From positions 1 through 19,113 of IMG/VR virus record IMGVR_UViG_2648501299_000003: 19,113 nt of DNA; one strand, given 5' to 3'. Position 1 is the stretch's first letter; every line of letters starts with the position of its first letter. Positions 1 through 19,113 of this stretch are shown piece after piece. The position numbers were made by a program, and so were the translations under genes. The stretch is from a virus (Duplodnaviria > Heunggongvirae > Uroviricota > Caudoviricetes). Under the pieces are notes generated by a model. That model had not been told where the DNA came from, did not search any database, and saw only the letters and a program-made list of their open reading frames with translations.

Positions 1-192
1 TCAGGAGCATTTCTGATTAACGCCACCGTTAAGAATCCACCCTTCAACAGCTTCACGAAGGTATGATTTGGGGTGGGTTCTGACTGGCTTCGGAAATCCG
101 TGCCGTTTGGTATAGTTCCAGATTGTCTGACGTGATGAAACACCGAGCTTGTTCATCACTTCTTTCTCAGGAATCAGGCTGGTATCGGTCAT
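1..192 (-). CDS. xis: AlpA/Xis-family excisionase-like DNA-binding protein (63 aa)
   Basis: Complete ORF (ATG 192-190, stop 3-1) with GGAG 7 nt upstream; small basic protein with AlpA-like pattern (GVS..TIW...FPKPV....W) at the integration-proximal end of the leftward operon; int expected beyond the window start. Confidence 0.6.
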   Translation of the reverse strand: MTDTSLIPEKEVMNKLGVSSRQTIWNYTKRHGFPKPVRTHPKSYLREAVEGWILNGGVNQKCS

Positions 193-271
193 CTTAATTC
201 TCCAGGCAAAAATAAACCGCCATACAGCGGCTCTATCAGATATGAACAGGCCTCATCGAGTGTGAGGCGGG

Positions 272-616
272 TTAGTCCTTGCGTAGCTCGCTGATTCTTC
301 TGTAAGTCTCTGGTGCTTTGTTCCCGTACGTCTTCATTTCAGACTTCAACAGAGCAACGAGTGAATCCCATTCGTTGAGGATTCCTTTGAATGCCGGAAC
401 GCGCTTTGCAACCTTGTCGAATGAATCTCTGATTTCTGGAATCTGCTCAACAAGTGCAACGCATCGCCGAAAGTCTGCTGCGTCATGGGGAGCGCCGAAG
501 TGATGACCATAGATATTCTTTTTCAGTCCACATGCGATTGAGGCAAGAGTTGCGCTACTGATGCCGACATCGCCAGTCGATTGCCATTTCAAAACCTTCA
601 TAGCCAAATCTGACAT
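272..616 (-). CDS. hypothetical early-left operon protein (114 aa)
   Basis: ORF with ATG at 616-614 and GGAG 7 nt upstream; no family recognised. Confidence 0.6.
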   Translation of the reverse strand: MSDLAMKVLKWQSTGDVGISSATLASIACGLKKNIYGHHFGAPHDAADFRRCVALVEQIPEIRDSFDKVAKRVPAFKGILNEWDSLVALLKSEMKTYGNKAPETYRRISELRKD

Positions 617-627
617 TTCTTGTCTCC

Positions 628-654
628 ATAAAACAAAACTCGCCGTAGCGAGTT
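628..654 (-). terminator. intrinsic terminator inside the leftward operon
   Basis: Minus-strand hairpin, 7-bp stem 637-643/648-654 (AACUCGC-UACG-GCGAGUU), followed by UUGUUUUAU (636-628), immediately upstream of the RBS of the 272..616 gene. Confidence 0.55.
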
Positions 655-716
655 CAGATAAAAGAAATCCCCGCGAGTGCGATGATTGTTATTCACCTTT
701 GACGGCAAGTTGCAGG

Positions 717-1514
717 TTAGCCACGGTTAACCTCCAGTTGTGGTGCTGCTTCTATAGCAGCCCTGTAACCAGCAGCATGACCGCGAAAGTTAGCAATCTC
801 TGATAGCCACGCTTTAATCATGGCCTGAGTTGGCTCCTTCGGCACCATAACCCAACCATCCGGAGTTACCGGAGAGTTGCCAGCCTGAACAGTAGGCATA
901 TCAGGACCTTTGCGAATCGCCCTGGCAAGATCGATTGGGTCGTCGTACAACCAGTCACCTGTTTGCGGATGATTGGCTTCTGCCAATTGTGCAGCCCACT
1001 CCAGGCCGTCTTTGTGTCCTTGAAGATAGTCCAGCGGCAACTCATCATGTTCACTTACAGGTTCGGCCCCATGAAGCATAGCGGCGCGGCATGCGTTCCA
1101 GCCTTGAGCCTTAGCTATTGCCACAACTGCATCGGTAAAGAACATTCTCGTGGTATCTGGCTCCGGCATTTCATCCGGCACCGCTTGCTGCGTTAACCGT
1201 GGAGCCGTCAGCGACTCCAATTCAGCAATCCGCTTCTCTGCTGCTTCCAGTTCATCAAGTAGCGCCAGCACGGTAGCTGGACTGGCTGCGGCGATGAATT
1301 CAGCATTGGCCTGCTGTTCCATTTGGAAATCTTCATCGAAACCGCTTTCAGGATGCGCTCCTTCAATTCTGCAAATGGGAAGATATCCAACAACTTCACG
1401 ATGAATTAGCGCATCATCACCATCAAATCGGCCCTCTCCATATTCGAGCGACCACTCACCACACGTTGCTTTTTCTGCCGCCTCACGCAGTGCCTGATAG
1501 TCAATCTTGCTCAC
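717..1514 (-). CDS. ead/Ea22-like family protein (265 aa, GTG start)
   Basis: N-terminus [16 protein letters not shown] recalled as typical of Ea22-like prophage proteins; only in-frame start is GTG at 1514-1512, overlapping the upstream stop (GTGA). Confidence 0.6.
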   Translation of the reverse strand: MSKIDYQALREAAEKATCGEWSLEYGEGRFDGDDALIHREVVGYLPICRIEGAHPESGFDEDFQMEQQANAEFIAAASPATVLALLDELEAAEKRIAELESLTAPRLTQQAVPDEMPEPDTTRMFFTDAVVAIAKAQGWNACRAAMLHGAEPVSEHDELPLDYLQGHKDGLEWAAQLAEANHPQTGDWLYDDPIDLARAIRKGPDMPTVQAGNSPVTPDGWVMVPKEPTQAMIKAWLSEIANFRGHAAGYRAAIEAAPQLEVNRG

Positions 1515-1993
1515 TGGTCGCCTCCTTTGCGAAGCTGGTCGGCGAACAAACGTACACTAGACGCTTCACTGCGTAGAAACTTAACGGCATAATCAAAACC
1601 ACCTCGTTCTGCGTCGTCTGCTCCGTTGTCGAGGTTATCTGCGTACATCTCTACCCCCTGCGCCCGTACTTCAGCCAGGAAAGCATCGGTAGATGGGGTG
1701 TTAAGTGAAAAGTCCTGTCGGCCTGATTTCAGATACGCAATGGCGATCTTTGTTGCTGCGCATTCGACAGCGAATTTCTCTTTTTCAGCAGCCATCTTCG
1801 CGCACTTGGCCTCAAGGTTATCAATCGTGATTCCAGCAGAACGACACTCACGCAACGCCGTTTCCAGTTTTGATTCAAGTTCACCGAACTTACGGACAAG
1901 ATATTCAGCGTTTGTTTCGTTAACCTTTAAATCTCGTGGGAAGAATTTACCTTTCAGAAAACCATCCATCTCAATTAGTGACATTTGTTTCAT
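1511..1993 (-). CDS. hypothetical coiled-coil protein (about 160 aa)
   Basis: ORF track 1511..2011; preferred start ATG at 1993-1991 because it overlaps the stop of the upstream ORF (ATGA) and has GGAG about 9 nt upstream. Confidence 0.5.
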
Positions 1994-2187
1994 TTCTTCC
2001 CACTCCGCCACATCGCATTCAGATATTTGTTTTGATTTACTGATGGAAAAGAATTTCTCTTAAGCAATTCCTCTCTCGATGGCATTGGCTTTACGCGTTG
2101 GCGAATAATCATTTCTGCCGGAAGAATGCCGGGATTGTATGCAAGTCCTCTCATGGTAAATTCCTCAGTCATTACTGATAGCGCCAT
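1990..2187 (-). CDS. hypothetical small protein (65 aa, start uncertain)
   Basis: ORF whose TGA stop overlaps the next gene's ATG; alternative start at ATG 2172. Confidence 0.4.
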
Positions 2188-2461
2188 AGCGTGAGCGGTA
2201 ATTACGCAGGCGCTGGTCGATATATTCAGGGAAGTGGGTATATGTGGCCTTGCGGAATGGTCGGATTGATGTTTCGTTTATTCGGTCTTTTTCCTGTTTT
2301 TCTGCGAGTTGTATATCGCGTCGGTACTTCCGTTCTGCTTTTGTTTCTGGTGGCAGAGCAAGAAACGCGCCGAGATTATTCTTGATACTTTCCAGCACCT
2401 CCGATACGGAATTGCCGGAACAGCGGCGCGGGTCATCCGCACCATACAGAGGCGCTGGCAT
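2165..2461 (-). CDS. hypothetical protein (98 aa)
   Basis: ATG 2461-2459 with AAGGA 7 nt upstream; begins 24 nt after the SSB stop. Confidence 0.55.
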
Positions 2462-2484
2462 AATGGAATCCTTATGCTGCTACT

Positions 2485-2868
2485 TTAGAAGGGAATTGAA
2501 TCGTCGTATTCAGGATGATTTTGATGATTGCTACTTTGCTGCTGTTGGCTGTTTCCTGAAGTTGCAAATCCAATCTTTGCATTCAGTAATTCAAGAGTGA
2601 TTGATTGACCATTTTGCCCCTGATAAACATCAACCCTGATGTTTTCTCCGGTAATTTCTACAATGCCACCTTCAACAAGAACACTACGGTAGTAATCCGC
2701 TTGCGCTCCCGGCTTGGCAAATACAACGGCGCTGTAGTTTGTCCATTCTTTCTTTTTTGTCTGGCGATCGTAATACTGAACGCCAGCACGGATGTTGAAT
2801 CCGATATTTTCCCCGGCCTGAAACTCTCTTGCGGGCTTGTTTAGTCTTACAGTAATCGAATGTGCCAT
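2485..2868 (-). CDS. ssb: phage single-stranded DNA-binding protein (SSB-like, about 127 aa)
   Basis: C-terminal tail ...PEYDDSIPF resembles the SSB acidic tail DDDIPF; start taken as ATG 2868-2866 overlapping the erf stop (TAATG) rather than the longer TTG-initiated track ORF. Confidence 0.6.
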   Translation of the reverse strand: MAHSITVRLNKPAREFQAGENIGFNIRAGVQYYDRQTKKKEWTNYSAVVFAKPGAQADYYRSVLVEGGIVEITGENIRVDVYQGQNGQSITLELLNAKIGFATSGNSQQQQSSNHQNHPEYDDSIPF

Positions 2869-3473
2869 TAAGCAGCCGCTCCTTCTAATTCGTCTCGTCT
2901 GATGTTGTAAACGTCCTGCGCTTTTTGCTGCTCCGGTGTGCCTTCGAGCATCTTCCACGCTTTGGCGAACGCCTGTTTAAGCTCTTCCACGGTGTTTTTC
3001 TGCAATGCTGCGTCAGTGAATGCTTTTAGAACCTGTTCAGGTGTATGTGATGGTTTTGATTGCTTTGCTGCTGCGTTCTGCTGATGTTTATGCTCGTCTG
3101 TATCTGCATCTTTCGCATCATCAATGCCGAACAAACCATTGAGGCAATACTTGCGTGCATAAGAGCTTGTAGCGCCCGTAACTTGTGCAGAATCCATTCC
3201 TTTCTTGCTTTCTTCCTCTCGTGCAAGAGCGGTTGCTGTATGACTGTTTTCGCCATCGGTAATAGTTGCCGTGGCTTTCACGTAATACCGATCACCAATC
3301 AACACAACTTCATCGCTGATTGATAAAAACAGACCATTCAGTAACGGCTTAACGCCTTCAAGAATATCTTCGCAGCTTCTGTATTTATATTTACCGAATG
3401 AGTTGTACTGATTTTTTGGCGCGTTCAGATTCTCCTGAATAGCTGCCAGTCTTGCGTAAAATTCTTTGCTCAT
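2868..3473 (-). CDS. erf: Erf-family single-strand annealing recombinase (about 201 aa)
   Basis: MSKEFYARLAAIQENL...YARKYCLNGLFGIDD matches recalled P22 Erf family features; ATG at 3473-3471 (track ORF begins at an upstream TTG). Confidence 0.75.
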   Translation of the reverse strand: MSKEFYARLAAIQENLNAPKNQYNSFGKYKYRSCEDILEGVKPLLNGLFLSISDEVVLIGDRYYVKATATITDGENSHTATALAREEESKKGMDSAQVTGATSSYARKYCLNGLFGIDDAKDADTDEHKHQQNAAAKQSKPSHTPEQVLKAFTDAALQKNTVEELKQAFAKAWKMLEGTPEQQKAQDVYNIRRDELEGAAA

Positions 3474-3483
3474 ATGATTGTTC

Positions 3484-3654
3484 TCAGAATGGACACGGCA
3501 CAAGTAAATAACGCTGATTTAATACTTCAGTCTTTGCCGCATTTAAAAATACGCGAACACCTTCACGATCTCCCTTCTGGCGATACATTAACGCCTGCTG
3601 CGTGTACATGCGTCTCTGTAACTTGCTCTCCTTCACTGTGGTTGCAAGTGACAT
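3484..3654 (-). CDS. small hypothetical protein (56 aa), overlaps the next ORF in another frame
   Basis: ATG 3654-3652 preceded by a perfect AAGGAG 6 nt upstream (3660-3655); protein-like composition throughout; below the 60-aa track cutoff. Confidence 0.45.
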   Translation of the reverse strand: MSLATTVKESKLQRRMYTQQALMYRQKGDREGVRVFLNAAKTEVLNQRYLLVPCPF

Positions 3655-3733
3655 GAATATCTCCTTCGTTACCGATTAATTCTTTCATCTGACGAATGAA
3701 TTCTTCGTCTGACCAGTTATCTGTAAAGATCAT
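3563..3733 (-). CDS. small hypothetical protein (56 aa), 3' part overlaps 3484..3654
   Basis: ATG 3733-3731 overlaps the kil stop (ATGA coupling); N-terminal half looks protein-like, C-terminal half is low complexity. Confidence 0.35.
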   Translation of the reverse strand: MIFTDNWSDEEFIRQMKELIGNEGDIHVTCNHSEGEQVTETHVHAAGVNVSPEGRS

Positions 3734-3882
3734 TTCCTGCGATACAACGGAAGGTTGATAGCTGATTTCATCGCTTTATTTGCTTCAAGCCACATTTTGG
3801 AATCACCAATAAATCTGGCTATTACTGCTTTGTTCTGTGCAGCACGAAGCATCTGGTGATTAATGGCTATTTCATTGCGCAT
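3730..3882 (-). CDS. kil: Kil-like host cell division inhibitor (50 aa)
   Basis: MRNEIAINHQMLRAAQNKAVIARFIGDSKMW resembles recalled lambda Kil core (...IATFIGDEKMF...); GAGG 7 nt upstream of ATG 3882; sits immediately downstream of cIII as in lambda. Confidence 0.55.
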   Translation of the reverse strand: MRNEIAINHQMLRAAQNKAVIARFIGDSKMWLEANKAMKSAINLPLYRRK

Positions 3883-3998
3883 AATAAGACCTCAACTCTT
3901 TTCCATCCGTCACGTAATTTACGGGTGATTCGTTCAAGTAAAGATTCATTTAGTTGGAAGGCACCCATGCGAGCGCCTCCCGCGATTGCGTAAATCAT
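3867..3998 (-). CDS. cIII: CIII-like FtsH inhibitor (43 aa)
   Basis: MIYAIAGG...ESLLERITRKLRDGWKR matches the recalled conserved core of lambda CIII; AAGGA 7 nt upstream of ATG 3998. Confidence 0.75.
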   Translation of the reverse strand: MIYAIAGGARMGAFQLNESLLERITRKLRDGWKRVEVLLCAMK

Positions 3999-4022
3999 GG
4001 GTGGTTCCTTATGTTGGTTTTA

Positions 4023-4991
4023 TTAGTAGGTTATTTTTGTTGCGAATACTTCGCCTTTTACGATGGCTGTTATGATATTTTTAGCAACATCTTCTGATGC
4101 GCCAACCTTGATAAGGTCAGCAAGTATTTTGTTATTTACTTCTTTCCGGTGAGCTTTATCCTTTGCTCTACGCTCTTCTTCGTCCTTGATTCTTTTTTCT
4201 TCTGCTATTCTGGCTTGCTCTTTTGCTTCAGCCTCGCGCCGGATTCGTTCAGCCTCCTCCTGTGCTTTTCGGCGTTCTGCTTCAATTGCCGCCTGCTTTT
4301 CTCTTTCAGCTCGTTCTGCTGCCTCTTTTGCTTCGCGCTGTGCTCGTTGCTCGGCTTCAATGCGTTCACGCTCTGCACGTTCCGCTGCGGCCTTAGCTTC
4401 TGCTTCTCGCCTTGCTGCTGCTTCAATTTCGGCTTTTGCCTTTGCTTCGGCTTCTGCTCTGGCTTTCTCTTCAGCTTCTCTTTTTAAGCGTTCTTCATGC
4501 TCTCGCTTTTCCTGCTCCGCTTTGAGTCTTGCCTCTTCTCTTTGGCGGTCAAATTCGCGATCCATCAAAATCGCTATTTCATGGTCAGACTCAATTTGCT
4601 TTGCGAGAGCTTCAGCTGCGGCCTTAGCTTCTTCTTCGGCTTTAATCCGTGCCTGTTCCTCCTCATAATCAGTAAGAGGCTGGCGCGCCTTGGCTTTCAG
4701 TTCATCAAGGCGATCGCGCACTGTCTTGCGGTTGGCATCAATTAGCTTTGGAATTTCCTTCAGTTCAGCAACAAGGTCTTTGCCAAGACCATCGAGATAT
4801 GTTTTCGTCTGCGCAACTTTATACGCCAGAGAAGCGATCTCCTTTCTGCCCTTTGCCGTTGTGATATCAGGCACAAAGGACATAACTTCTCGTTCAACCT
4901 TTTGGAGAATTTCTTCAATCTGGTCGGCAGACTGAAATACAGTCATTGCATTTGCTTTTTCAATAACAACTAAATCTGTTACTTCACTCAT
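4023..4991 (-). CDS. coiled-coil protein with long E/A/K/R-rich low-complexity repeat region (322 aa)
   Basis: ATG 4991-4989 with GGAGGA 3-4 nt upstream; N-terminal about 100 aa and C-terminal about 45 aa look globular, flanking about 180 aa of EAEAKAKAE/ERAERE-type repeats. Confidence 0.7.
   Translation of the reverse strand: MSEVTDLVVIEKANAMTVFQSADQIEEILQKVEREVMSFVPDITTAKGRKEIASLAYKVAQTKTYLDGLGKDLVAELKEIPKLIDANRKTVRDRLDELKAKARQPLTDYEEEQARIKAEEEAKAAAEALAKQIESDHEIAILMDREFDRQREEARLKAEQEKREHEERLKREAEEKARAEAEAKAKAEIEAAARREAEAKAAAERAERERIEAEQRAQREAKEAAERAEREKQAAIEAERRKAQEEAERIRREAEAKEQARIAEEKRIKDEEERRAKDKAHRKEVNNKILADLIKVGASEDVAKNIITAIVKGEVFATKITY
4180..4560. repeat. degenerate short tandem repeats (gcttc/gcctc/tgctt-type) encoding the E/A/K/R repeat tract
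   Basis: Visible periodic nucleotide repetition; both antisense frames are open here (track ORFs 4149..4487 and 4186..4668), a signature of low-complexity repeats. Confidence 0.6.
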
Positions 4992-5003
4992 ATATCCTCC
5001 ATC

Positions 5004-5032
5004 AAAAAAATTGCCCTCACACTGGAGGGCAA
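5004..5032 (-). terminator. intrinsic terminator inside the leftward operon (tL-like)
   Basis: Minus-strand hairpin, 8-bp stem 5011-5018/5025-5032 (UUGCCCUC-CAGUGU-GAGGGCAA), followed by UUUUUUU (5010-5004), then the RBS of the 4023..4991 gene. Confidence 0.65.
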
Positions 5033-5166
5033 AGAAGATTTCCAATAATCAGAACAAGTCGGCTCCTGTTTAGTTACGAGCGACATTGCTCCGTGTATTC
5101 ACTCGTTGGAATGAATACACAGTGCAGTGTTTATTCTGTTGTTTATGCCAAAAATAAAGGCCACCA

Positions 5167-5418
5167 TCAGGCAGCCTTGTTGTAAATGTTGCAGGTATCA
5201 AGTAAGTAATTAGATGGAGCGCCATAAACTATGAATTCATCGTTTGTCGGGTCCATCTCCATCTCTTGGCCTATTGCCATTCTTGCGTCAGTGTCATCAG
5301 AGGCGAAGCATAAAACAGCCCACGCACCCATTGTTTTAAAAAGAACTGCAATTGGCTGTGGTTTTACTGAATTTGCGTTAGCGCGAAAATCACAAATCGC
5401 ACTTTCATGAAACTCCAT
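5167..5418 (-). CDS. hypothetical protein (83 aa)
   Basis: ATG 5418-5416 with GAGG 6 nt upstream. Confidence 0.55.
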   Translation of the reverse strand: MEFHESAICDFRANANSVKPQPIAVLFKTMGAWAVLCFASDDTDARMAIGQEMEMDPTNDEFIVYGAPSNYLLDTCNIYNKAA

Positions 5419-5480
5419 ATCTCACCTCAAATAAGTGGTTTGCTGCCAAAACAATGAACCATCCGGAAATTCCAGATAGT

Positions 5481-5705
5481 TCATAATTCACCCTTCAATA
5501 CTTCCAACTTACTAATCGCCGATAGATATCCGCGCTGATAGGGCATCATCATTCCTTCGAGCTTGCCACTTCTTAACTCCTCCCTGAGCAATTGTATTGC
5601 TTGATCAATAACCTCTGCCTTAGCGTCCTTTATGGCTTGCTTGCGGGGCTTTGCTTTCTGCTTTGGCAGATTTCTCAAGCATGATGGAATGTATGTCTTA
5701 TTCAT
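5481..5705 (-). CDS. hypothetical protein (74 aa) immediately downstream of N
   Basis: ATG 5705-5703 with GAGG 6 nt upstream, 3 nt after the N stop; track ORF starts one codon earlier at GTG. Confidence 0.55.
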   Translation of the reverse strand: MNKTYIPSCLRNLPKQKAKPRKQAIKDAKAEVIDQAIQLLREELRSGKLEGMMMPYQRGYLSAISKLEVLKGEL

Positions 5706-5708
5706 CAC

Positions 5709-6092
5709 TTACCTCGCCGTCAGTTGTTTGGATTTCCGGTAGCCTGCCGCGTAAAGAGCTACATTTGGAAGACACACACCAGTTTCTGGTTGCTTATGTC
5801 CAAACTCATTCGCGTACACAATGGCCGCTCTCTCCAGATTGCGTCTGTATTCTTTCTGTTGCCAGATCACGTCCTGTGCCATGAACTTAATTGGCTTAGC
5901 GTCTTCTATGCGCTCAGGCGTTTCGTGAGTACCTTTAGCCTGAATCTGCGCTCTGCTTAGAGTAGGGCGGTGTAATACTTCTGAACTTATTGCTTCTTCG
6001 CGGGCCAGTACGCCGTTAGCTAATGCCTTTGCCTTTAAACGCTCACGACGACGAGAACGTGAATTGCCTTTGAACTGAGTTCTGCGTGTCAT
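5709..6092 (-). CDS. N: N-type transcription antitermination protein, P22 gp24-like (127 aa)
   Basis: Arginine-rich motif near N-terminus (GNSRSRRRERLKAKALANG) and C-terminus LPNVALYAAGYRKSKQLTAR resembling recalled P22-type N; ATG 6092-6090 with AGGAGG 5 nt upstream; boxB lies upstream on the same strand. Confidence 0.75.
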   Translation of the reverse strand: MTRRTQFKGNSRSRRRERLKAKALANGVLAREEAISSEVLHRPTLSRAQIQAKGTHETPERIEDAKPIKFMAQDVIWQQKEYRRNLERAAIVYANEFGHKQPETGVCLPNVALYAAGYRKSKQLTAR

Positions 6093-6220: not shown

Positions 6221-6235
6221 GCGCTTTGTCAGCGC
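6221..6235 (-). promoter_or_regulatory. nutL boxB hairpin (P22 type)
   Basis: Minus-strand reads GCGCTGACAAAGCGC, a 5-bp stem with GACAA pentaloop, identical to the recalled P22 boxB; about 60-75 nt downstream of the predicted pL start; no canonical boxA (CGCTCTT) found nearby. Confidence 0.7.
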
Positions 6236-6303
6236 CGTAGATTCATATTCGAATCGTTGTATATTCACCGCCCTGGTGAGTAGTGCGTCCTGCTGATGGC
6301 TAA

Positions 6304-6541: not shown

Positions 6542-6550
6542 ATGTAGGCA

Positions 6551-7828: not shown

Positions 7829-7837
7829 ACCCTCATT

Positions 7838-12489: not shown

Positions 12490-13013
12490 CTATCAAATCA
12501 AATACGCCAGCGTCAGATAGGTATCGGCTTATTGAGGATTATCTGTATTTAGACGGAGATACAGTCAGATACAAAAAGGACTCGCTAAAACACCCCAACC
12601 ACAGCCACCGGGCAGGAGATGAAATTAAAACATCGATAAATGGATCTGGGTATAGACAGGTGTGTTTTGCAGGCATTCAGATGTTTGTTCACGTAGTTGT
12701 TTTTGCGCTGCACAACAAAAGAATGCCATTGAAAAATATTGACCATATTAACGGAAACAGGCTGGACAATTCCCCAAAAAATCTTAGGGAGGCAAGCCGG
12801 ATAGCAAACAGCCGAAATCAGAAAACTAAGTGCAATAGCCGTTCTGGAATAAAAAATGTTTTATGGAACAAGCAAAAAAATAAATGGGCCGTTCAAGTGC
12901 GCACAGATTTTGGCCGGTTGTATTTTGGGCTCTATGAAGATCTTGAACTTGCTTGTTTGGTTGCCAGTGAGGCTATCAACAAATATCACGGACAATATGC
13001 GAAGGTTGTATGA
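12486..13013 (+). CDS. second HNH endonuclease with AP2 domain (about 175 aa, GTG start)
   Basis: HNH motif NIDHINGNRLDNSPKNLR and AP2-like GIKNVLWNKQKNKWAVQVRTDFGRLYFGLYEDLELA; GTG 12486 overlapping the NinB stop (GTGA) with GGAGAGG 8 nt upstream; track start 12450 is TTG. Confidence 0.7.
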   Translation: MTIKSNTPASDRYRLIEDYLYLDGDTVRYKKDSLKHPNHSHRAGDEIKTSINGSGYRQVCFAGIQMFVHVVVFALHNKRMPLKNIDHINGNRLDNSPKNLREASRIANSRNQKTKCNSRSGIKNVLWNKQKNKWAVQVRTDFGRLYFGLYEDLELACLVASEAINKYHGQYAKVV

Positions 13014-13540
13014 TTAAGCATAAATCAGAAACACCAAAAGAAGTTAGAGACTGCTGGCAAACTCCGCTTTGGCTTTTTGATGCACTGGATATTGAGTTTG
13101 GATTCTGGCTGGATTCGGCAGCGAGCGACAAAAATGCTCTGTGCGCTCACTGGCTAACTGAGGCCGACGACGCGCTCAATTCTGAGTGGGTAAGCCACGG
13201 TGCAATCTGGAATAACCCACCGTACAGCAATATCAGGCCGTGGGTGGAAAAAGCCGCTGAGCAGTGCATACAACAGCGACAGACGGTAGTTATGCTTGTG
13301 CCAGAGGATATGTCTGTCGGATGGTTCAGCAAGGCTCTGGAGAGTGTCGACGAAGTTCGCATTATCACTGATGGACGGATTAATTTTATCGAACCATCGA
13401 CAGGGCTGGAGAAGAAGGGAAACAGCAAAGGTTCCATGCTGCTGATTTGGCGACCGTTCATCAGTCCTCGACGGATGTTTACTACCGTATCCAAAGCGGC
13501 ATTGATGACGATCGGGCAGGGCGTCAGGAGGGCGGCATGA
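13010..13540 (+). CDS. phage-type DNA N6-adenine methyltransferase (Dam-like, 176 aa)
   Basis: NPPY catalytic motif (IWNNPPYS) and WQTP N-terminal pattern; ATG overlaps the HNH stop (ATGA). Confidence 0.7.
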
Positions 13541-13719
13541 GGCGACAGCGACGAAGTATCACCGACATCATCTGCGAAAACTGCAAATACCTTCCAACGA
13601 AGCGCTCCAGAAATAAACGCAAGCCAATCCCAAAAGAATCTGACGTAAAAACCTTCAATTACACGGCTCACCTGTGGGATATCCGGTGGCTAAGACATCG
13701 TGCGAGGAATACAAGGTGA
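13537..13719 (+). CDS. ninE: NinE (60 aa)
   Basis: [23 protein letters not shown]... matches recalled lambda NinE; ATG overlaps the Dam stop with GGAGGG upstream; lies inside the longer track ORF 13447..13719. Confidence 0.75.
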
Positions 13720-13886
13720 TTGACCCAAATCGAAGTTACGAACAAGAAAGCGTCGAGCGGGCTTTAACGTGCGCTAACTGCGGTCAAAAGCTGCATTTTC
13801 TGGAAGTTCACGTGTGCTCCGATTGCTGCGCAGAACTGATGAGCGATCCGAATAGCTCAATGTACGAGGAAGAAGACGATGGCTAA
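13716..13886 (+). CDS. ninF: NinF (about 56 aa, GTG start; alternative ATG 13674)
   Basis: [46 protein letters not shown] matches recalled lambda NinF; GTG 13716 overlaps the NinE stop with GAGG upstream. Confidence 0.7.
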
Positions 13887-14490
13887 ACCAGCGCGAAGAC
13901 GATGTAAAAACGATGAATGTCGGGAATGGTTTCACCCTGCATTCGCTAATCAGTGGTGGTGCTCTCCAGAGTGTGGAACAAAGATAGCACTCGAACGACG
14001 AAGTAAAGAACGCGAAAAAGCGGAAAAAGCAGCAGAGAAGAAACTACGACGAGAGGAGCAGAAACAGAAAGATAAACTGAAGATTCGAAAACTCGCCTTA
14101 AAGCCCCGCAGTTACTGGATTAAACAAGCCCAACAAGCCGTAAACGCCTTCATCAGAGAAAGAGACCGCGACTTACCATGTATCTCGTGCGGAACGCTCA
14201 CGTCTGCTCAGTGGGATGCCGGACATTACCGGACAACTGCTGCGGCACCTCAACTCCGATTTGATGAACGCAATATTCACAAGCAATGCGTGGTGTGCAA
14301 CCAGCATAAAAGCGGAAATCTCGTTCCGTATCGCGTCGAACTGATTAACCGAATCGGGCAGGAAGCAGTAGACGAAATCGAATCAAACCATAACCGCCAT
14401 CGCTGGACTGTCGAAGAGTGCAGGGCCATCAAGGCAGAGTACCAACAGAAACTCAAAGACCTGCGAAACAGCAGAAGTGAGGCCGCATGA
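13879..14490 (+). CDS. ninG: NinG (Rap-like recombination protein, 203 aa)
   Basis: Near identity to recalled lambda NinG ([10 protein letters not shown]...WWCSPECG...[30 protein letters not shown]...). Confidence 0.85.
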
Positions 14491-14693
14491 CGTTCTCAGT
14501 AAAAACCATTCCAGACATGCTCGTTGAAGCATACGGAAACCAGACAGAAGTAGCACGCAGACTGAAATGTAGTCGCTGTACGGTCAGAAAATACGTTGAT
14601 GATAAAGACGGGAAAATGCACGCCATCGTCAACGACGTTCTCATGGTTCATCGCGGATGGAGTGAAAGAGATGCGCTATTACGAAAAAATTGA
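14487..14693 (+). CDS. ninH: NinH (68 aa)
   Basis: [30 protein letters not shown]... matches recalled lambda NinH; ATGA overlap with NinG. Confidence 0.8.
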
Positions 14694-15336
14694 TGGCAGC
14701 AAATACCGAAATATTTGGGTAGTTGGCGATCTGCACGGATGCTACACGAACCTGATGAAAAAACTGGAGACGATAGGATTCGACACCAAAAAAGACCTGC
14801 TTATCTCGGTTGGCGATTTGGTCGATCGCGGTACAGAGAACGTCGAATGCCTGGAATTAATCACATTCCCCTGGTTCAGAGCTGTACGTGGAAACCATGA
14901 GCAAATGATGATTGATGGCTTATCAGAGCGTGGAAACGTTAATCACTGGCTGCTTAATGGCGGTGGCTGGTTCTTTAATCTCGATTACGACAAAGAAATT
15001 CTGGCTAAAGCTCTTGCCCATAAAGCAGATGAACTTCCGTTAATCATCGAACTGGTGAGCAAAGATAAAAAATATGTCATCTGCCACGCCGATTATCCTT
15101 GTGACGAATACGAGTTTGGAAAGCCAGTTGATCATCAGCAGGTAATCTGGAACCGCGAACGAATCAGCAACTCACAAGACTGGATCGTGAAAGAAATCAA
15201 AGGCGCGGACACGTTCATCTTTGGTCATACGCCAGCAGTGAAACCACTCAAATTTGCCAACCAGATGTATATCGATACTGGCGCAGTGTTCTGCGGAAAT
15301 CTCACATTGATTCAGGTACAGGGAGACGGCGCATGA
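14671..15336 (+). CDS. ninI: NinI serine/threonine protein phosphatase (lambda PPase-like, 221 aa)
   Basis: [25 protein letters not shown]...GNHE... metallophosphatase motifs; start taken at ATG 14671 (track ORF begins at 14596). Confidence 0.85.
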
Positions 15337-15956
15337 GACTCGAAAGCGTGGCTAAATTTCATTCGCCAAAAAGCCCGATGATGAGCGACTCACCACGGGC
15401 CACGGCTTCTGACTCTCTTTCCGGTACTGATGTGATGGCTGCTATGGGGATGGCGCAATCACAAGCCGGATTCGGTATGGCTGCATTTTGCGGTAAGCAC
15501 GAACTCAGCCAGAACGACAAACAAAAGGCTATCAACTATCTGATGCAGTTTGCACACAAGGTATCGGGGAAATACCGTGGCGTGGCAAAGCTTGAAGGAA
15601 ATACTAAGGCAAAGGTACTGCAAGTGCTCGCAACATTCGCTTATGCGGATTATTGCCGTAGTGCCGCGACGCCGGGGGCAAGATGCAGAGATTGCCACGG
15701 TACAGGCCGTGCGGTTGATATAGCAAAAACAGAGCAGTGGGGGAGAGTTGTTGAGAAAGAGTGCGGAAGATGCAAAGGCGTAGGCTATTCCAGGATGCCA
15801 GCAAGCGCCGCATATCGCGCTGTAACGATGCTAATCCCAAACCTTACCCAACCCACCTGGTCACGCACTGTTAAGCCGCTGTATGACGCTCTGGTGGTGC
15901 AATGCCACAAAGAAGAGTCAATCGCAGACAACATTTTGAATGCGGTCACACGTTAG
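15333..15956 (+). CDS. Q: Q late-gene antiterminator (lambda-type, 207 aa)
   Basis: Essentially identical to recalled lambda Q over its length ([24 protein letters not shown]...[12 protein letters not shown]...). Confidence 0.9.
15620..15633 (-). promoter_or_regulatory. candidate paQ CII site (TTGC-N6-TTGC, antisense within Q)
   Basis: Plus strand GCAAgtgctcGCAA inside Q; lambda carries a CII-dependent antisense promoter within Q. Confidence 0.4.
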
Positions 15957-15998
15957 CGGCATGATTGCCACGGATGGCAACATCTTTACGGCATGATA

Positions 15999-16027
15999 TT
16001 GACTTTTTGAATAAAGTTGGGTAAATT
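15999..16027 (+). promoter_or_regulatory. pR' late promoter (qut region just downstream)
   Basis: -35 TTGACT (15999-16004), 17-bp spacer, -10 TAAATT (16022-16027), directly downstream of Q. Confidence 0.7.
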
Positions 16028-16167
16028 TGACCCAACGATGGGTTAATTCGCTCGTTGTGGTAGTGAGATGAAAAGAGGCGGCGCTTACTACCGATTCCGC
16101 CTAGTTGGTCACTTCGACGTATCGTCTGGAACTCCAACCATCGCAGGCAGAGAGGTCTGCAAAATGC

Positions 16168-16227
16168 AATCCCGAAACAGTTCGCAGGTAATAGTTAGAG
16201 CCTGCATAACGGTTTCGGGATTTTTTA
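16168..16227 (+). terminator. tR'-like terminator ending the short pR' leader (6S RNA equivalent)
   Basis: AATCCCGAAAC (16168-16178) pairs with GTTTCGGGATT (16212-16222) around an inner GCAGG/CCTGC hairpin, then TTTTTT (16221-16226); about 190 nt from the predicted pR' start. Confidence 0.7.
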
Positions 16228-16632
16228 TATCTGCACAACAGGTAAGAGCATTGAGTCGATAATCGTGAAGAGTCGGAGAGCCTGGTTAGCCAGTGCTCTT
16301 TCCGTTGTGCTGAATTAAGCGAATACCGGAAGCAGAACCGGATCACCAAATGCGTACAGGCGTCATCGCCGCCCAGCAACAGCACAACCCAAACTGAGCC
16401 GTAGCCACTGGCTATCCTGAACTCATCAGTGATAGTTACGCTGCGGCCTTCTATACATGACCTTCGTGAAAGCGGGTGGCAAGAGGTTGCGCTAACAACC
16501 TCCTGCCGTTTTGCCCGTGCATATCGGTCACGAACAAATCTGATTACTAAACACAGTAGCCTGGATTTGTTCTATCAGTAATCGACCTTATTCCTAAATA
16601 AATAGAGCAAATCCCCTTATTGGGGGTAAGAC

Positions 16633-16956
16633 ATGAAGATGCCAGAAAAAAATGACCTGTTAGCCGCCATTCTCGCGGCAAAGGAACAAGGCATCGGGGC
16701 AATCCTTGCGTTTGCAATGGCGTACCTTCGCGGCAGATATAATGGCGGTGCGTTTACAAAAACAGTAATCGACGCAACGATGTGCGCCATTATCGCCTGG
16801 TTCATTCGTGACCTTCTCGACTTCGCTGGACTAAGTAGCAATCTCGCTTATATAACGAGCGTGTTCATCGGCTACATCGGTACTGACTCGATTGGTTCGC
16901 TTATCAAACGCTTCGCTGCTAAAAAAGCCGGAGTAGAAGATGGTGGGAATCAATAA
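16633..16956 (+). CDS. S: class I holin S with dual-start motif (S107 antiholin / S105 holin)
   Basis: [39 protein letters not shown]... near-identical to recalled lambda S; ATG at 16633 and 16639 (Met-Lys-Met). Confidence 0.9.
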
Positions 16957-17416
16957 TCAACGTAAGGCGTTCCTCGATATGCTGGCATGGTCAGAGGGAA
17001 CTGATAACGGACGTCAGAAAACCAGAAATCATGGTTATGACGTCATTGTAGGCGGAGAGCTATTCACTGATTACTCAGATCACCCTCGCAAACTTGTCAC
17101 GCTAAACCCCAAACTCAAATCAACAGCCGCCGGACGTTACCAGCTTCTTTCACGTTGGTGGGATGCATACCGTAAGCAGCTTGGCCTGAAAGACTTCTCT
17201 CCGAAAAGCCAGGACGCTGTGGCATTGCAACAGATTAAAGAGCGTGGCGCTTTGCCGATGATTGATCGCGGTGATATCCGTCAGGCAATCGACCGTTGCA
17301 GCAATATCTGGGCTTCGTTGCCCGGGGCTGGTTATGGCCAGTTCGAGCATAAGGCTGACAGCCTGATTGCAAAATTCAAAGAAGCTGGCGGAACAGTCAG
17401 AGAGATTGAGGTATGA
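16940..17416 (+). CDS. R: endolysin R (lytic transglycosylase, 158 aa)
   Basis: Near identity to recalled lambda R ([46 protein letters not shown]...). Confidence 0.9.
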
Positions 17417-17850
17417 GCAGAGTAACCGCGATTATCTCCGCTCTGGTTATCTGCATCATCGTCTGCCTGTCATGGGCTGTTAATCATTACCGGGATAACG
17501 CCATGACCTACAAAGAGCAGCGCGATAAGGCCACATCCACAATCGCTGACATTCAGAAGCGTCAACGTGATGTAGCAGAACTCGATGCCAGATATACAAA
17601 GGAACTTGCTGATGCTAACGCGACTATCGAAAGTCTCCGTGCTGATGTTTCTGCTGGGCGTAAGCGCCTGCAAGTCGCCGCCACCTGTGCAAAGTCAACG
17701 ACCGGAGCCAGCAGCATGGGCGATGGAGAAAGCCCAAGACTTACAGCAGATGCTGAACTCAATTATTACCGTCTCCGAAGTGGAATCGACAGGATAACCG
17801 CGCAGGTTAACTACTTGCAGGAATACATCAGGACGCAATGCCTTCGATGA
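17413..17850 (+). CDS. Rz: Rz i-spanin (145 aa)
   Basis: N-terminal TM segment [23 protein letters not shown], coiled-coil remainder, lambda Rz-like; ATGA overlap with R. Confidence 0.85.
17612..17797 (+). CDS. Rz1: Rz1 o-spanin lipoprotein embedded in the +1 frame of Rz (about 61 aa)
   Basis: Lipobox LLGVSAC followed by proline-rich [13 protein letters not shown]; AAGGA 8 nt upstream of ATG 17612 (alternative ATG 17585). Confidence 0.7.
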
Positions 17851-17990
17851 TAGCGATAATTTTACTCATCATCCTTCACATCTGGCTCTGTAGACAGGGT
17901 GGTGATCACTTCTGGAGTGAATCCAGATTAAACATCTCATTGCTGATGCTTGAAGTTGAGCATCTGGCGCGCGGTAAGGGGCTGCGTTGA
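17847..17990 (+). CDS. small hydrophobic ORF (47 aa) coupled to the Rz stop
   Basis: ATG 17847 overlaps the Rz stop (ATGA); N-terminus [15 protein letters not shown] is TM-like; below track cutoff. Confidence 0.3.
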
Positions 17991-18228
17991 GATAAGAGCC
18001 AGTTCATTACAAAGCCTATCTACGGGTGGGCTTGATAATGAAACCGGAATTTATTCTGGGCAACCAGTTACGGCAGTACAGCGAAACAACCCAAGCCAGT
18101 AAGTGGGGAAATAACACTGGCAGCCACTGAAAGATGAACCTCCTGCCTTATGGCAAAAAAGATTCTTTGTGGTTGCGGACTGATGGAAAGACATCCTAAT
18201 CAAGCAACTACTCTACAGGGTCATAATT

Positions 18229-18600
18229 ATGAACGACCAGCAAATTGAAAAAGAAATCGCAGCCAAGGGTAAGACGGCGGCTCGCGTTACTCCTGAACAC
18301 ATTGCCAGCATAATCGCCAGCGAACATTACTTTACGGCCGCTGATGGTGCTCGCTTTGCTCATGTGCAGAGAAGCGAAACATACAGCGTAAAAATCCCAG
18401 ACCAGCCTGACGAGCTGGAGCTGCTGACATTCTGCGTTCTGGTGCTGAAGAATGGCTTTACGGTCACCGGGGAAAGCGCCTGCGCCAGCCCAGAGAACTT
18501 CGATGAAGAAATCGGGCGCAAGATTGCTCGCCAGAATGCTGTAAACAAAATCTGGATGCTCGAAGGTTACTTGCTGAAGCAGAAGCTAAGCGAACAGTAG
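18229..18600 (+). CDS. hypothetical phage protein (123 aa), possibly Gp49/Sf6 gp66-like
   Basis: ORF between the lysis cassette and the HNH gene; family assignment is a weak recollection only. Confidence 0.5.
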   Translation: MNDQQIEKEIAAKGKTAARVTPEHIASIIASEHYFTAADGARFAHVQRSETYSVKIPDQPDELELLTFCVLVLKNGFTVTGESACASPENFDEEIGRKIARQNAVNKIWMLEGYLLKQKLSEQ

Positions 18601-18762
18601 TTATTACAAAAGCCATTCCCTACAGAGTGGCTTTGATAATGGCTTATACCCTACACGGGATAACTTAACTGATATCCCTTTTAACGGATAAACGGAGCCA
18701 ATAATGGCAGAGAATGTCGGCATTATGGCAGTGAAATTTGGATAAATCGGAGATTAGTACAT

Positions 18763-19113
18763 ATGCCGCCACGAATCCCAAAAGCCTGCCGTGTTCGCGG
18801 TTGCCGCCATACCACCACAGATCCGTCAGGCTATTGTGAAAGCCACAAAAGCGAAGGCTGGAAGCAATACAAGCCAGGACAATCCCGTCATCAGCGCGGT
18901 TATGGTTCGAAGTGGGATGTTATCCGTGAACGTGTGCTGAAGCGTGACAAAGGCCTGTGCCAGTTGTGCCTGCGTGCCGGTGTGGTACGTGAGGCGAAAA
19001 CCGTTGACCACATCATCCCTAAAGCGCATGGCGGCACTGATGCCGACTGTAATCTGCAGAGTCTGTGCTGGCCGTGTCATAAGGCGAAGACGGCCCGTGA
19101 ACGGTTGAAGTGA
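18763..19113 (+). CDS. HNH endonuclease (terminase-associated type, 116 aa)
   Basis: Cys-rich N-terminus (CRVRGCRH...C) and HNH motif DHIIPKAHGG...NLQSLCWPCHKAKT; ATG 18763, stop at the window end; position matches HNH genes that precede terminase in HK97-like packaging modules. Confidence 0.8.
   Translation: MPPRIPKACRVRGCRHTTTDPSGYCESHKSEGWKQYKPGQSRHQRGYGSKWDVIRERVLKRDKGLCQLCLRAGVVREAKTVDHIIPKAHGGTDADCNLQSLCWPCHKAKTARERLK

Follow-up and report, generated by a model that had tools for sequence, protein, structure and literature searches.

The window analysed here, a stretch of 19,113 nucleotides from a Caudoviricetes virus record, raises the question of where its modules come from and whether the junctions between them carry anything new. 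A first-pass annotation had described it as lambda-like modules joined to P22-type N/nut, Erf/SSB and DnaB helicase modules. Megablast of the whole window showed no single described phage with uniform identity throughout: the best phage record, mEp234, covered 61% at 96.8% identity, the best complete Escherichia coli genome, E. coli H1, covered 60%, and no phage record or complete E. coli genome covered ≥80%. Local blastn against lambda, P22, HK97, 933W and mEp234 revealed identity flipping sharply between 95-100% and nothing detectable, with lambda similarity confined to 13544-17661, HK97 blocks at 1799-3884 and at several places in the right arm, and mEp234 blocks at 1-692, 2725-5450, 8166-11124, 13744-16056 and 16462-17843. 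The closest relative differs from one functional unit to the next. Described phages or E. coli prophages match each segment at 92-100%, and the odd segments all recur at 97-100% in further E. coli phages or prophages, where their neighbours differ.

The gene order is canonical lambdoid: xis, ea genes, Abc2/SSB-like/Erf, kil, cIII, N, nutL, pL, cI with OR, cro, nutR, cII, O with ori iterons, P, the nin region, Q, pR'/tR', S, R, Rz/Rz1 and HNH. All ORFs are intact, and their Pfam and PHROG family assignments fit this synteny. From sequence, the window appears to hold the complete early-left, immunity, early-right (replication and nin) and late-control plus lysis region of an E. coli temperate siphovirus, lambdoid and of the HK97/mEp234 (Hendrixvirinae-like) lineage; its source may have been either a prophage or a free phage. 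As the window stops within the phage, our statements cover this region rather than the whole genome. The described phage mEp234 has the named modules in identical order, albeit with a truncated SSB-like gene and a cII of just 83% identity. The best overall explanation, to which we assign a probability of roughly 0.93, is a mosaic lambdoid region produced by module exchange, with HNH genes and a moron added. The annotation's core reading, a lambdoid genome built from modules of different histories, was borne out. The leftward genes, with both nut sites, are as follows.

1-192, minus strand: xis/AlpA-like excisionase (100% aa to mEp234 gp26; phrog_66, excisionase)
272-616, minus strand: orf114 (98% aa to mEp234 gp27; phrog_1229)
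717-1514, minus strand: Ead/Ea22-like protein, 265 aa (Pfam Ead_Ea22, 2e-24)
1511-2011, minus strand: orf166 (phrog_614; 74% aa to HK97 gp37)
1990-2187, minus strand: DUF2737 protein (Pfam DUF2737, 5e-31; 95% aa to HK97)
2165-2461, minus strand: abc2, anti-RecBCD (Pfam Anti-RecBCD_p2, 1.6e-41)
2485-2868, minus strand: SSB-like protein, HK97 gp40 type (94% aa to HK97 gp40; phrog_44, SSB, 1.8e-28)
2868-3473, minus strand: erf, single-strand annealing protein (Pfam ERF, 2.3e-44)
3484-3654, minus strand: small protein encoded upstream of erf, where P22 has arf (phrog_1723; 96% aa to mEp234 gp30)
3730-3882, minus strand: kil (98% aa to HK97 and mEp234 Kil)
3867-3998, minus strand: cIII (100% aa to mEp234, 72% to P22, 69% to lambda)
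4023-4991, minus strand: 322-aa coiled-coil protein, annotated TolA-like or Sf6 gene 33-like (100% aa to mEp234 gp33; phrog_1376)
5011-5032, 5157-5178 and 5454-5484, minus strand: three terminator-like hairpins of the leftward operon (terminator scan)
5167-5418, minus strand: orf83 (98% aa to mEp234 gp34; phrog_2471)
5481-5708, minus strand: orf75 (phrog_5305; 98-99% nt in the E. coli E6 and H1 prophages)
5709-6092, minus strand: N antiterminator, HK97/933W/mEp234 allele (99% aa to all three; Pfam N_peptide, 1e-15)
6221-6235, minus strand: nutL boxB hairpin, GCGCTGACAAAGCGC / GCGCUGACAAAGCGC (15/15 identical to P22 nutL boxB; also identical in HK97, 933W and mEp234)
6304-6345, minus strand: pL, TTGACT-17-TACTAT, with overlapping operator-like 15-mers (promoter scan)
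8198-8212, plus strand: nutR boxB hairpin, TCGCTGACAAAGCGA / UCGCUGACAAAGCGA (identical in HK97, 933W and mEp234)

Two of these genes are cargo relative to mEp234: the Ead/Ea22-like gene of the ea region, which mEp234 lacks and which has patchy 90-95% matches in HK633, HK620 and mEpX1, and orf75, directly downstream of N and absent from both mEp234 and HK97. The Erf and SSB genes are indeed present, as had been proposed, but not as P22 alleles. Erf is 99% identical at the amino acid level to HK97 and mEp234 and 74% to P22, while Abc2 is 68% identical to P22 Abc2 and 70% to HK97 (~93% nt to Sf101 and HK544). The SSB-like protein, which ends in ...YDDSIPF and gave no match in a Pfam search, is of the HK97 gp40 type classed as 'SSB-1b' (PMC12315714). 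That survey has already catalogued Rec modules combining anti-RecBCD, SSB and an annealing protein without Exo.

The leading alternative, in which a P22-like phage donated the N/nut, Erf/SSB and helicase modules to a lambda backbone, we consider very improbable. In its favor, the nutL boxB is identical to that of P22 and both boxB loops read GACAA, as the annotation had correctly noted, the arginine-rich motif and C-terminal 30 aa of N resemble gp24, and Erf, Abc2 and DnaB-type helicase functions were first described in P22. However, the N match to P22 spans 23% of its length, with just the arginine-rich N-terminus and the final ~30 residues in common, identity to P22 is low for Erf, Abc2 and P (31%), for these genes HK97 and mEp234 reach 94-99%, and the Rec module of P22 lacks an SSB (PMC12315714). 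Neither N nor these modules can keep the P22 label. The non-lambda modules are HK97/mEp234/933W-lineage alleles, at 99% for N and Erf, 94% for the gp40-type SSB-like protein and, to mEp234, 99% for both O and P. The lambda backbone fares little better, as cII and the greater part of Rz differ from lambda and the lambda-like right arm is just as similar to mEp234. Preferring the lambdoid mosaic, we turn to the immunity and replication genes.

6520-6541, minus strand: intrinsic terminator ending the cI-orf126-orf33 unit (terminator scan)
6551-6652, minus strand: orf33, a conserved 33-codon ORF (length and position kept in Klebsiella and Pectobacterium)
6722-7102, minus strand: orf126, in the rexAB position downstream of cI (phrog_16322)
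7169-7828, minus strand: cI repressor (Pfam HTH_3 and Peptidase_S24; start codon uncertain, at 7828, 7864 or 7891)
7829-7940, no strand: OR region with operator-like 15-mers, e.g. 7896-7912 (15-mer in common with OL)
7941-8156, plus strand: cro (Pfam HTH_3, 1e-11; ~91.5% nt to phi458 and relatives)
8297-8596, plus strand: cII, HK97/933W type (Pfam Phage_CII, 5e-35; 90% aa to HK97, 40% to lambda)
8542-8572, minus strand: oop terminator, overlapping the cII 3' end (terminator scan)
8629-8790, plus strand: orf53, HK97 gp53 (100% aa to HK97 and mEp234)
8777-9667, plus strand: O-like replication initiator (99% aa to mEp234 O; phrog_345, 1e-84)
9163-9194 and 9229-9257: ori iterons TTGTCCAACGG within the O gene (tandem repeats)
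9657-11093, plus strand: P, DnaB-family replicative helicase (Pfam DnaB, 6e-32; DnaB_C, 9e-61)

The cI gene is itself composite. Its C-terminal S24 part (7169-7579) is 86-87% identical at the nucleotide level to lambda and HK97, while blastn of 7580-7828 against the same two phages gave no match, the S24 domain being lambda/HK97-like and the N-terminal HTH domain belonging to another immunity type. The segment 7560-8170 is found at 100% in E. coli PEC389, and its family in 776 of 5426 genomes; the operator-like 15-mer recurs between OL and OR with 1-2 mismatches. The cII gene had been described as nearly identical to lambda, but only its oop-overlapping 3' end (8532-8636, 94% nt) is lambda-like. 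The helicase claim held in that P has both DnaB N- and C-terminal domains and no similarity to lambda P was found, but it is not the P22 allele, being 31% identical to P22 gp12, 32% to HK97 P and 99% to mEp234.

Downstream of cI lies another piece of junction cargo, the two-gene cassette encoding 126 and 33 aa. The orf126 gene has a GC content of 0.37 and a promoter-like site at 7121-7149; its product is predicted to fold as a four-helix bundle (pLDDT 72), a fold search with this structure gave no informative match, and there was none in Pfam or PADLOC. In E. coli 503440 a 100% identical copy adjoins cI and N genes unlike those of the window, and orf126 appears to be moron-type cargo. Pairwise comparisons of orf33, including Klebsiella and Pectobacterium, yielded 9-11 synonymous-only codons per pair, its PHROG search was without a match, and the hairpin of the intrinsic terminator at 6520-6541 also stands behind the Pectobacterium homologue. 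Further cargo occupies the nin region.

11175-11786, plus strand: free-standing HNH_3 + AP2 homing endonuclease, 203 aa (Pfam HNH_3, 8e-16, and AP2; GC 0.35)
11785-11812, both strands: bidirectional terminator hairpin (terminator scan)
11847-12074, plus strand: DUF7301 protein (Pfam DUF7301, 1.6e-22)
12064-12489, plus strand: divergent NinB/YbcN-like protein (phrog_72, 2.7e-34)
12486-13013, plus strand: second free-standing HNH_3 homing endonuclease, inserted in the dam 5' end (Pfam HNH_3, 5e-11)
13010-13540, plus strand: Dam-type N6-adenine methyltransferase (Pfam Dam, 7e-66; 95-96% aa to HK97 and 933W)
13537-13719, plus strand: ninE (93% aa to lambda)
13716-13886, plus strand: ninF (89% aa to lambda)
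13879-14490, plus strand: ninG (98% aa to lambda; Pfam NinG)
14487-14693, plus strand: ninH (99% aa to lambda)
14671-15336, plus strand: ninI (96% aa to lambda; Pfam Metallophos)

Both HNH insertion sites were resolved to the base, and the two insertions are independent. The first gene lies on a 658-bp insertion (11125-11782), in place of which mEp234, E6, H1 and 933W read 11124|11783; alignment with mEp234 and H1 identified the adjacent hairpin as equivalent to that of the mEp234 ninA region. For the second, D53-1 and H1 read 12511|13049 with 10 bp replacing the gene, whose first 9 codons are in common with their dam. The NinB/YbcN-like protein scored just 18 bits with Pfam NinB, under the 23.8 cut-off, and tblastn against lambda and P22 NinB gave no match. 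It had been suggested that novel cargo would sit at module junctions, and cargo does sit there, but each piece is already present elsewhere at 97-100% in E. coli phages or prophages; none of the junction cargo matched known defence families. From ninE onward the window is largely lambda-like through R, as had been described.

15333-15956, plus strand: Q late antiterminator, lambda type (Pfam Antiterm, 1e-57)
15999-16262, plus strand: pR' (15999-16027) with qut, 6S leader and tR' hairpin (~16170-16226) (promoter scan; lambda alignment)
16068-16262, plus strand: orf64 (100% aa to lambda)
16633-16956, plus strand: S holin (98% aa to lambda, 96-99% to HK97 and mEp234)
16940-17416, plus strand: R transglycosylase (98% aa to lambda, 96-99% to HK97 and mEp234)
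17413-17850, plus strand: Rz (95% aa to HK97, 90-93% to P22, 58-62% to lambda)
~17612-17797, plus strand: Rz1, embedded in Rz
17838-17990, plus strand: orf50, small hydrophobic protein (phrog_11822; 98% nt in the E. coli H1 prophage)
18229-18600, plus strand: N4 gp49/Sf6 gp66 family protein (Pfam Phage_gp49_66, 7e-37; 97.2% nt to mEpX1)
18763-19113, plus strand: HNH endonuclease before the packaging genes, in an HK97 gp74-like position (Pfam HNH, 5e-15)

Q is 100% identical to lambda Q and 98% to P22 gp23, and pR'/qut/6S/tR' is ~98% identical to lambda at the nucleotide level (aligned to lambda 44493-45193, 99% mean column identity). The expected likeness to lambda also held for S and R, but for Rz it extends over residues 1-39 only, the remainder and Rz1 being of HK97/P22 type. 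The terminal HNH gene is 92% identical at the nucleotide level to an E. coli D53-1 gene located before a P27-family small terminase.

A chimeric contig, joined across repeats common to the lambdoid prophages of one genome or metagenome, is the least probable reading, for although E. coli genomes have a median of 3 and a maximum of 14 places matching the window, which makes repeat-induced misjoins possible in short-read assemblies, and although no phage record or complete E. coli genome reproduced the full combination by megablast, every gene is intact and stands in the canonical order, the operons and regulatory sites form a coherent whole, parts that interact match each other (N and both nut sites, the O C-terminus and P, Q and qut), and several types of junction recur independently in complete genomes (P-hnh203-DUF7301 in D53-1, NinB-like-hnh187-dam in E6, orf126-cI in 503440).

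Under the lambdoid mosaic, modules would have been exchanged among co-infecting or resident lambdoid phages, a well-documented process, probably by homologous or homeologous recombination in conserved flanks (the cI C-terminal domain, nutR-cII, ori inside O, ninE and Q) with occasional illegitimate joins; at each junction, we infer the mechanism from the pattern of similarity. Several junctions fall at functional boundaries: the cI domain linker (7579/7580), the end of cro (8166), the ori iterons of O, where similarity to E. coli E6 begins exactly at 9257, and Rz past its transmembrane segment. Cargo would have been added by insertion of free-standing HNH homing-endonuclease genes and by gain of a moron that carried promoter, genes and terminator of its own, the latter suggested for orf126 by its promoter-like site, terminator and low GC. 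Dependent parts would move jointly, namely N with both boxB sites, the O C-terminus with helicase P, Q with pR'/qut/tR', and the Rz C-terminus with Rz1. Nothing in the data of this analysis speaks against the mosaic explanation, and it is already established that lambdoid genomes are mosaic and that interacting genes are transferred together (PMC9836094, PMC2327257, PMC2629481). Overall, the mosaic is real but ordinary; it includes no new kind of system, its modules all circulate in known phages and prophages, and such a patchwork is textbook behaviour for lambda-family phages.

Listing and translating the ORFs of the window gave a lambdoid early region without gaps, and the ORF map and per-gene homology placed the early-left, immunity, early-right, nin, Q, and lysis genes in lambda order from xis to Rz. 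Gene families were assigned from Pfam and PHROGs, while promoter-like and terminator-like sites came from a scan of the sequence. An Rfam scan of the window at E<=0.1 found no family and a tRNA scan found no tRNA genes.

Features of the window, in map order (coordinates, strand, description)
1-192, minus: xis
Between xis and the Ead/Ea22 gene, minus: orf114
717-1514, minus: Ead/Ea22 protein
Between the Ead/Ea22 gene and abc2, minus: orf166, then a DUF2737 protein
2165-2461, minus: abc2
2485-2868, minus: SSB-like gene
2868-3473, minus: erf, with an ERF domain
After erf, minus: a small gene at the arf position, kil, and cIII, in this order
4023-4991, minus: 322-aa coiled-coil protein
Between the coiled-coil gene and N, minus: orf83 and orf75
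5709-6092, minus: N, followed by nutL and pL
6520-6541, minus: terminator
6551-6652, minus: orf33, a 33-codon ORF
6722-7102, minus: orf126
7169-7828, minus: cI, with HTH and S24 domains
7941-8156, plus: cro, with an HTH domain, followed by nutR
8297-8596, plus: cII, followed by orf53
8777-9667, plus: O, the replication initiator gene, with 11-bp iterons (TTGTCCAACGG) at 9163-9257
9657-11093, plus: P, with DnaB N- and C-terminal domains
11175-11786, plus: hnh203 (HNH_3 and AP2), followed by a DUF7301 gene
12064-12489, plus: NinB-like gene
12486-13013, plus: hnh187 (HNH_3), followed by dam and ninE-ninI
15333-15956, plus: Q, followed by pR', tR', and orf64
Between orf64 and the terminal HNH gene, plus: S, R, Rz/Rz1, orf50, and a gp49/66-family gene
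18763-19113, plus: terminal HNH gene

The 322-aa coiled-coil protein is rich in Ala, Glu, and Lys and is placed between cIII and the tL terminators. It resembles Sf6 gene 33, is 100% conserved in phage mEp234, and is annotated as 'TolA' in some records.

The window was compared by blastn with lambda, P22, HK97, 933W, and mEp234, in 250-bp bins over nine references, and in a per-segment table. All of these block comparisons agreed, as blocks of 95-100% identity stop abruptly at sequence without detectable similarity. Similarity to lambda is essentially confined to 13544-17661 (95.7%), apart from the C-terminal domain of cI (86% nt) and the oop region. The segments shared with HK97 are 1799-3884, N/nutL, nutR-cII-orf53, dam-ninF, Q, and the lysis genes, and those shared with mEp234 are 1-692, 2725-5450, 8166-11124, 13744-16056, and 16462-17843. 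This sharp pattern bears out the first-pass annotation, which had described the window as a mosaic. Among the 50,697 INPHARED records, the best phage match was mEp234 (61% coverage at 96.8% identity, in 12 pieces), and no record covers at least 80% of the window. Similarly, 0 of 5,426 complete E. coli genomes reach this coverage (best 60%), and the IMG/VR and GTDB loci carrying an exact 49-nt tag from the cro region included no uniform match, with the best locus extending 3.6 kb at at least 98% identity. No record covers at least 80% of the window, and therefore no single described phage is uniformly identical to it in the collections available. An assembly chimera was also considered as the source of the pattern, but is unlikely because the operons are coherent and the junctions were observed independently. 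It should be noted that one contig carrying an exact 49-nt match to the cro region, JAEZIN010000021.1, is binned as 'MAG: Bacillota bacterium' and is probably a mis-binned enterobacterial prophage fragment.

The closest phage overall is mEp234 (Wanchaivirus, Hendrixvirinae; NC_019715). It has in common with the window xis, orf114, Erf, kil, cIII, the 322-aa coiled-coil protein, N with both nut sites, orf53, O, the DnaB-type P (99% aa), ninE, ninG-ninI, Q, S, R, and Rz/Rz1. In fact, all modules named in the first-pass annotation are found there in unchanged order, although the mEp234 version of the SSB-like gene is truncated and that of cII has 83% identity. The window differs from mEp234 by ~2 kb of extra sequence in the ea/rec region (Ead/Ea22, orf166, DUF2737, abc2, and a full SSB-like gene), by the presence of orf75, and by its immunity region, which has another cI N-terminus, OR, and cro, as well as orf126/orf33 where mEp234 has HicAB. 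It also differs in the nin-left block, with two HNH genes, DUF7301, the NinB-like gene, and dam, and in having the lambda orf64 region, orf50, the gp49/66 gene, and a different terminal HNH gene. HK97 (NC_002167) has the same boxB sites and high amino acid identity in many genes (N 99%, Erf 99%, the SSB-like gp40 94%, kil 98%, cII 90%, and orf53 100%; dam 95%, ninE/F 95-96%, Q 99%, S 96%, R 99%, and Rz 95%). However, identity to the window falls to 23% for O and 32% for P, roi, rusA, and other nin genes replace ninG-ninI, and the immunity module, the genes downstream of cI, and the ea genes all differ.

For lambda (NC_001416), the 13544-17661 block comprises ninE-ninI, Q, pR'/qut/tR', orf64, S, R, and Rz residues 1-39, whereas nothing in the window resembles lambda exo, bet, gam, N, rexAB, cro, O, P, ren, or ninB-D. 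Classically, a lambdoid phage is one that recombines with lambda to yield viable hybrids, and this 4.1-kb block at 95.7% identity would supply homology for such recombination. P22 (NC_002371) shares kinds of function with the window, namely Erf, Abc2, a DnaB-type helicase, and a lambda-type Q (98%). Its nutL boxB is identical, its N is similar in the arginine-rich motif and C-terminus, and its Rz/Rz1 are 90-96% identical, but its other alleles are distant (Erf 74%, Abc2 68%, helicase 31%, and an unrelated N centre) and its immunity, O, and R genes differ. Stx phage 933W (NC_000924) encodes a 99% identical N with the same nut sites, along with cII (86%), dam (96%), and ninG (94%), and differs in its Exo/Bet/Gam, lambda-type O and P, other Q and lysis cassette, and stx genes. 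On these per-gene identities, a P22-derived origin of the modules was rejected. The modules first labeled as P22 are instead HK97/mEp234 alleles, and cII and Rz are not lambda-like. For cII, said to be nearly identical to lambda, the amino acid identity is just 40%, compared with 90% for HK97.

The junctions between blocks fall at functional boundaries. One lies within cI, between the DNA-binding and S24 domains (7579/7580), and a likewise domain-wise pattern has been described for phage epsilon34 (PMC2629481). Others lie directly after the cro stop codon (8166), at the beginning of O, with HK97 similarity ending at 8807, within O at the last ori iteron (9257), at the start of ninE (13544), and behind the transmembrane segment of Rz. 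Parts that interact were kept together: both nut sites go with N, P goes with the C-terminus of O, pR'/qut/tR' with Q, and Rz1 with the C-terminus of Rz. This matches the co-transfer of functionally interdependent genes among lambdoid phages (PMC9836094). The overall pattern also fits mosaicism driven by recombination (PMC2327257).

The N protein has a Pfam N_peptide domain and the window contains two boxB hairpins, both initially regarded as P22-type together with N. This holds for the hairpins, as the nutL boxB (GCGCTGACAAAGCGC) is identical to the P22 nutL boxB at 15/15 positions and the nutR boxB carries the same GACAA pentaloop. The N protein itself is another matter. Its arginine-rich motif (FKGNSRSRRRER) resembles that of P22 gp24 (FAGNAKTRRHER), but whole-length homology to gp24 was not found by either BLASTP, which aligned only the last 30 residues (70% identity), or MAFFT, which gave 44% identity overall with an unrelated centre. 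N is instead 99% identical to the N proteins of HK97, 933W, and mEp234, and all three phages have the same two boxB sequences, so the N/nut module is the HK97/933W allele rather than a P22 import. No obvious CGCTCTT-type boxA was found upstream of the nutL boxB (6236-6300, minus strand). At nutR (8166-8197, plus strand), a boxA-like element reads ACTCTTTT in the window versus GCTCTTTT in HK97 and mEp234, and this element lies directly at the junction of cro and nutR (8166). Reduced dependence on boxA and Nus has reportedly been seen in the related N system of H-19B. Overall, the sequence predicts antitermination through both N/nut and Q/qut, as well as a genetic switch of cI and Cro with OL and OR.

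The segment comprising the cI N-terminus, OR, and cro has ~91.5% identity to phi458 and its relatives. A copy with 100% identity occurs in E. coli PEC389, next to another replication module and other genes downstream of cI. Operator-like 15-mers are common to OL and OR. A novel immunity specificity was considered and rejected, given the identical PEC389 copy and the occurrence of this immunity family in 776 of 5,426 E. coli genomes.

Recombination had been attributed to Erf plus SSB of P22 type, and here Erf and an SSB-like gene are indeed present, while the P22 label does not hold. Erf has a Pfam ERF match of 2.3e-44 (cut-off 25 bits) and Abc2 in its neighborhood, but is 99% identical to HK97 versus 74% to P22. 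Between erf and abc2, the SSB-like gene matches the phrog_44 family 'single strand DNA binding protein' (1.8e-28), and its product has no Pfam match at E<=0.01. The protein ends in ...PEYDDSIPF, an SSB-type acidic tip. In E. coli SSB, the acidic C-terminal tip is DDDIPF. The protein is of the HK97 gp40 type (94% identical), which is classed as SSB-1b from its predicted fold, and the P22 Rec module has no SSB gene (PMC12315714). A combination of anti-RecBCD, SSB, and annealing protein without Exo is one catalogued Rec module type (PMC12315714). A search of the window found no Chi sites, consistent with the Rec module class lacking Exo. In mEp234, the SSB-like gene is cut down to its C-terminal third.

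The helicase gene P occupies the position of lambda P and encodes DnaB (6e-32) and DnaB_C (9e-61) Pfam domains with the motif GARPKMGKT. No window protein gave a tblastn match to lambda P, nor did the window P match lambda. Thus, the original call of a DnaB-type helicase rather than a lambda P-type loader holds, except for the P22-type label, as identity reaches 99% with mEp234 but only 31% with P22 gp12. Approximately 5-6 copies of the 11-bp iteron form two clusters within O and encode the repeated peptide CPTVVQRLS. Similarity to the E. coli E6 prophage begins exactly at the last iteron (9257), which indicates that the two halves of O were joined by recombination at the origin.

Downstream of P, two HNH_3 endonuclease genes interrupt the nin-left region, and both match phrog_99. 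The first, hnh203 (HNH_3 8e-16 plus AP2), lies within a 658-bp insertion (11125-11782) where GC falls to 0.35. The insertion falls exactly within the left arm of the hairpin terminator that follows P (CAGG^CCTG), and the hairpin is rebuilt. The corresponding empty site (11124|11783) is found in mEp234, E. coli H1, E6, and 933W. Stx phages such as PA28 carry the block 11100-12042 at 99% identity. The second, hnh187 (HNH_3 5e-11), lies within a 537-bp insertion (12512-13048) at the 5' end of dam, and it reuses the dam start codon and first nine codons (VTIKSNTPA), with a new dam start and N-terminus following. In E. coli D53-1 and H1, 10 bp take the place of this insertion (12511|13049), and the window's arrangement is 99.9% identical in E6. 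Both genes show precise presence/absence polymorphism in prophages that are otherwise 98-99% identical, and in domain content and distribution they have the properties expected of free-standing HNH homing endonucleases. The nearby NinB/YbcN-like protein scored 18 bits against Pfam NinB (cut-off 23.8) and matched phrog_72 (3e-34), with no tblastn match to lambda or P22 NinB. It represents a divergent NinB lineage that travels with DUF7301. In contrast, ninE-ninI are lambda-like as first described, with NinE, F, G, H, and I being 93, 89, 98, 99, and 96% identical to lambda in amino acid sequence.

The lambda-like assignment of the late control and lysis functions was equally well founded. Q and orf64 are 100% and S and R 98% identical to lambda (aa), and the pR'/qut/6S/tR' region aligns at 98-99% identity (99% mean column) with an identical tR' hairpin. 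Rz, also considered nearly identical to lambda, is so for its first 39 residues, but the remainder and the embedded Rz1 are HK97/P22-type. Elsewhere in the window, counterparts of orf75, orf50, and the gp49/66 gene occur at 97-99% identity in the E6 and H1 prophages and mEpX1. The terminal HNH gene is complete at the end of the window. It is 42% identical to HK97 gp74 over 41% of its length and 92% identical to a D53-1 gene directly preceding a P27-family small terminase, an arrangement also seen with HK97 gp74. The position of the D53-1 homolog implies that an HK97-style HNH-assisted packaging module would lie just beyond the window.

Module junctions had been proposed to carry novel cargo. 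Cargo is indeed present, but all of it occurs in public genomes and none is new sequence. A PADLOC search with ten cargo proteins found no match, save a chance-level value of 0.0016 for orf166. At the position of lambda rexAB, downstream of cI, is a cassette (6520-7149, minus strand) of orf126 (126 aa), orf33 (33 aa; MKTMSTLHKDAMTLRSLINEILARSSAHTKKAA), and a terminator. Its GC content is low (0.37), and it comes with a promoter-like site of its own (7121-7149) and an intrinsic terminator (6520-6541). The cassette is absent from mEp234, HK97, and PEC389. E. coli 503440 has an identical copy next to another cI, Cro, and N, and the record of this strain does not annotate orf33. By these properties, orf126-orf33 would qualify as a moron-type unit. 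Homologs of orf126 at 66-86% identity are limited to Enterobacterales, and an exhaustive profile search of 1.8 billion representatives returned 19 matches, all single-domain proteins of ~125 aa or shorter fragments. No match to orf126 was found in Pfam, PADLOC, or PDB sequence profiles. Its AlphaFold prediction is a four-helix bundle (pLDDT 72), for which Foldseek found nothing at E<=0.001 in PDB and BFVD, only generic helical bundles and designed proteins. The small orf33 is of equal length and position in Klebsiella and Pectobacterium, and in each pairwise comparison 9-11 codons carry synonymous changes only, whereas the intergenic DNA cannot be aligned. Because of this, orf33 is very probably translated. 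In Pectobacterium, the orf126-orf33 pair adjoins mnt/arc/ant (immI) of a P22-like prophage, and in Klebsiella it occupies a chromosomal site adjoining umuDC-like genes and a resolvase. Thus, the cassette appears to move as a unit among lambdoid immunity, Pectobacterium immI, and Klebsiella umuDC-like settings. It may, as something of a long shot, be an uncharacterized prophage-expressed system, such as one for superinfection exclusion or defense, or have another lysogen function. An exclusion or defense role expressed from the lysogen is a guess from its position.

The mosaicism of lambdoid phages stands as the founding example of modular evolution in phages. The mosaic finding is correct but unsurprising, and matters little beyond annotation. 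The orf126-orf33 cassette occurs widely in Enterobacterales prophages and is a candidate for an exclusion or defense gene pair. The window provides a clean, fully resolved example of lambdoid modular evolution, with junctions at gene or domain boundaries, interacting parts inherited together, and two putative homing endonuclease insertions mapped to the base.
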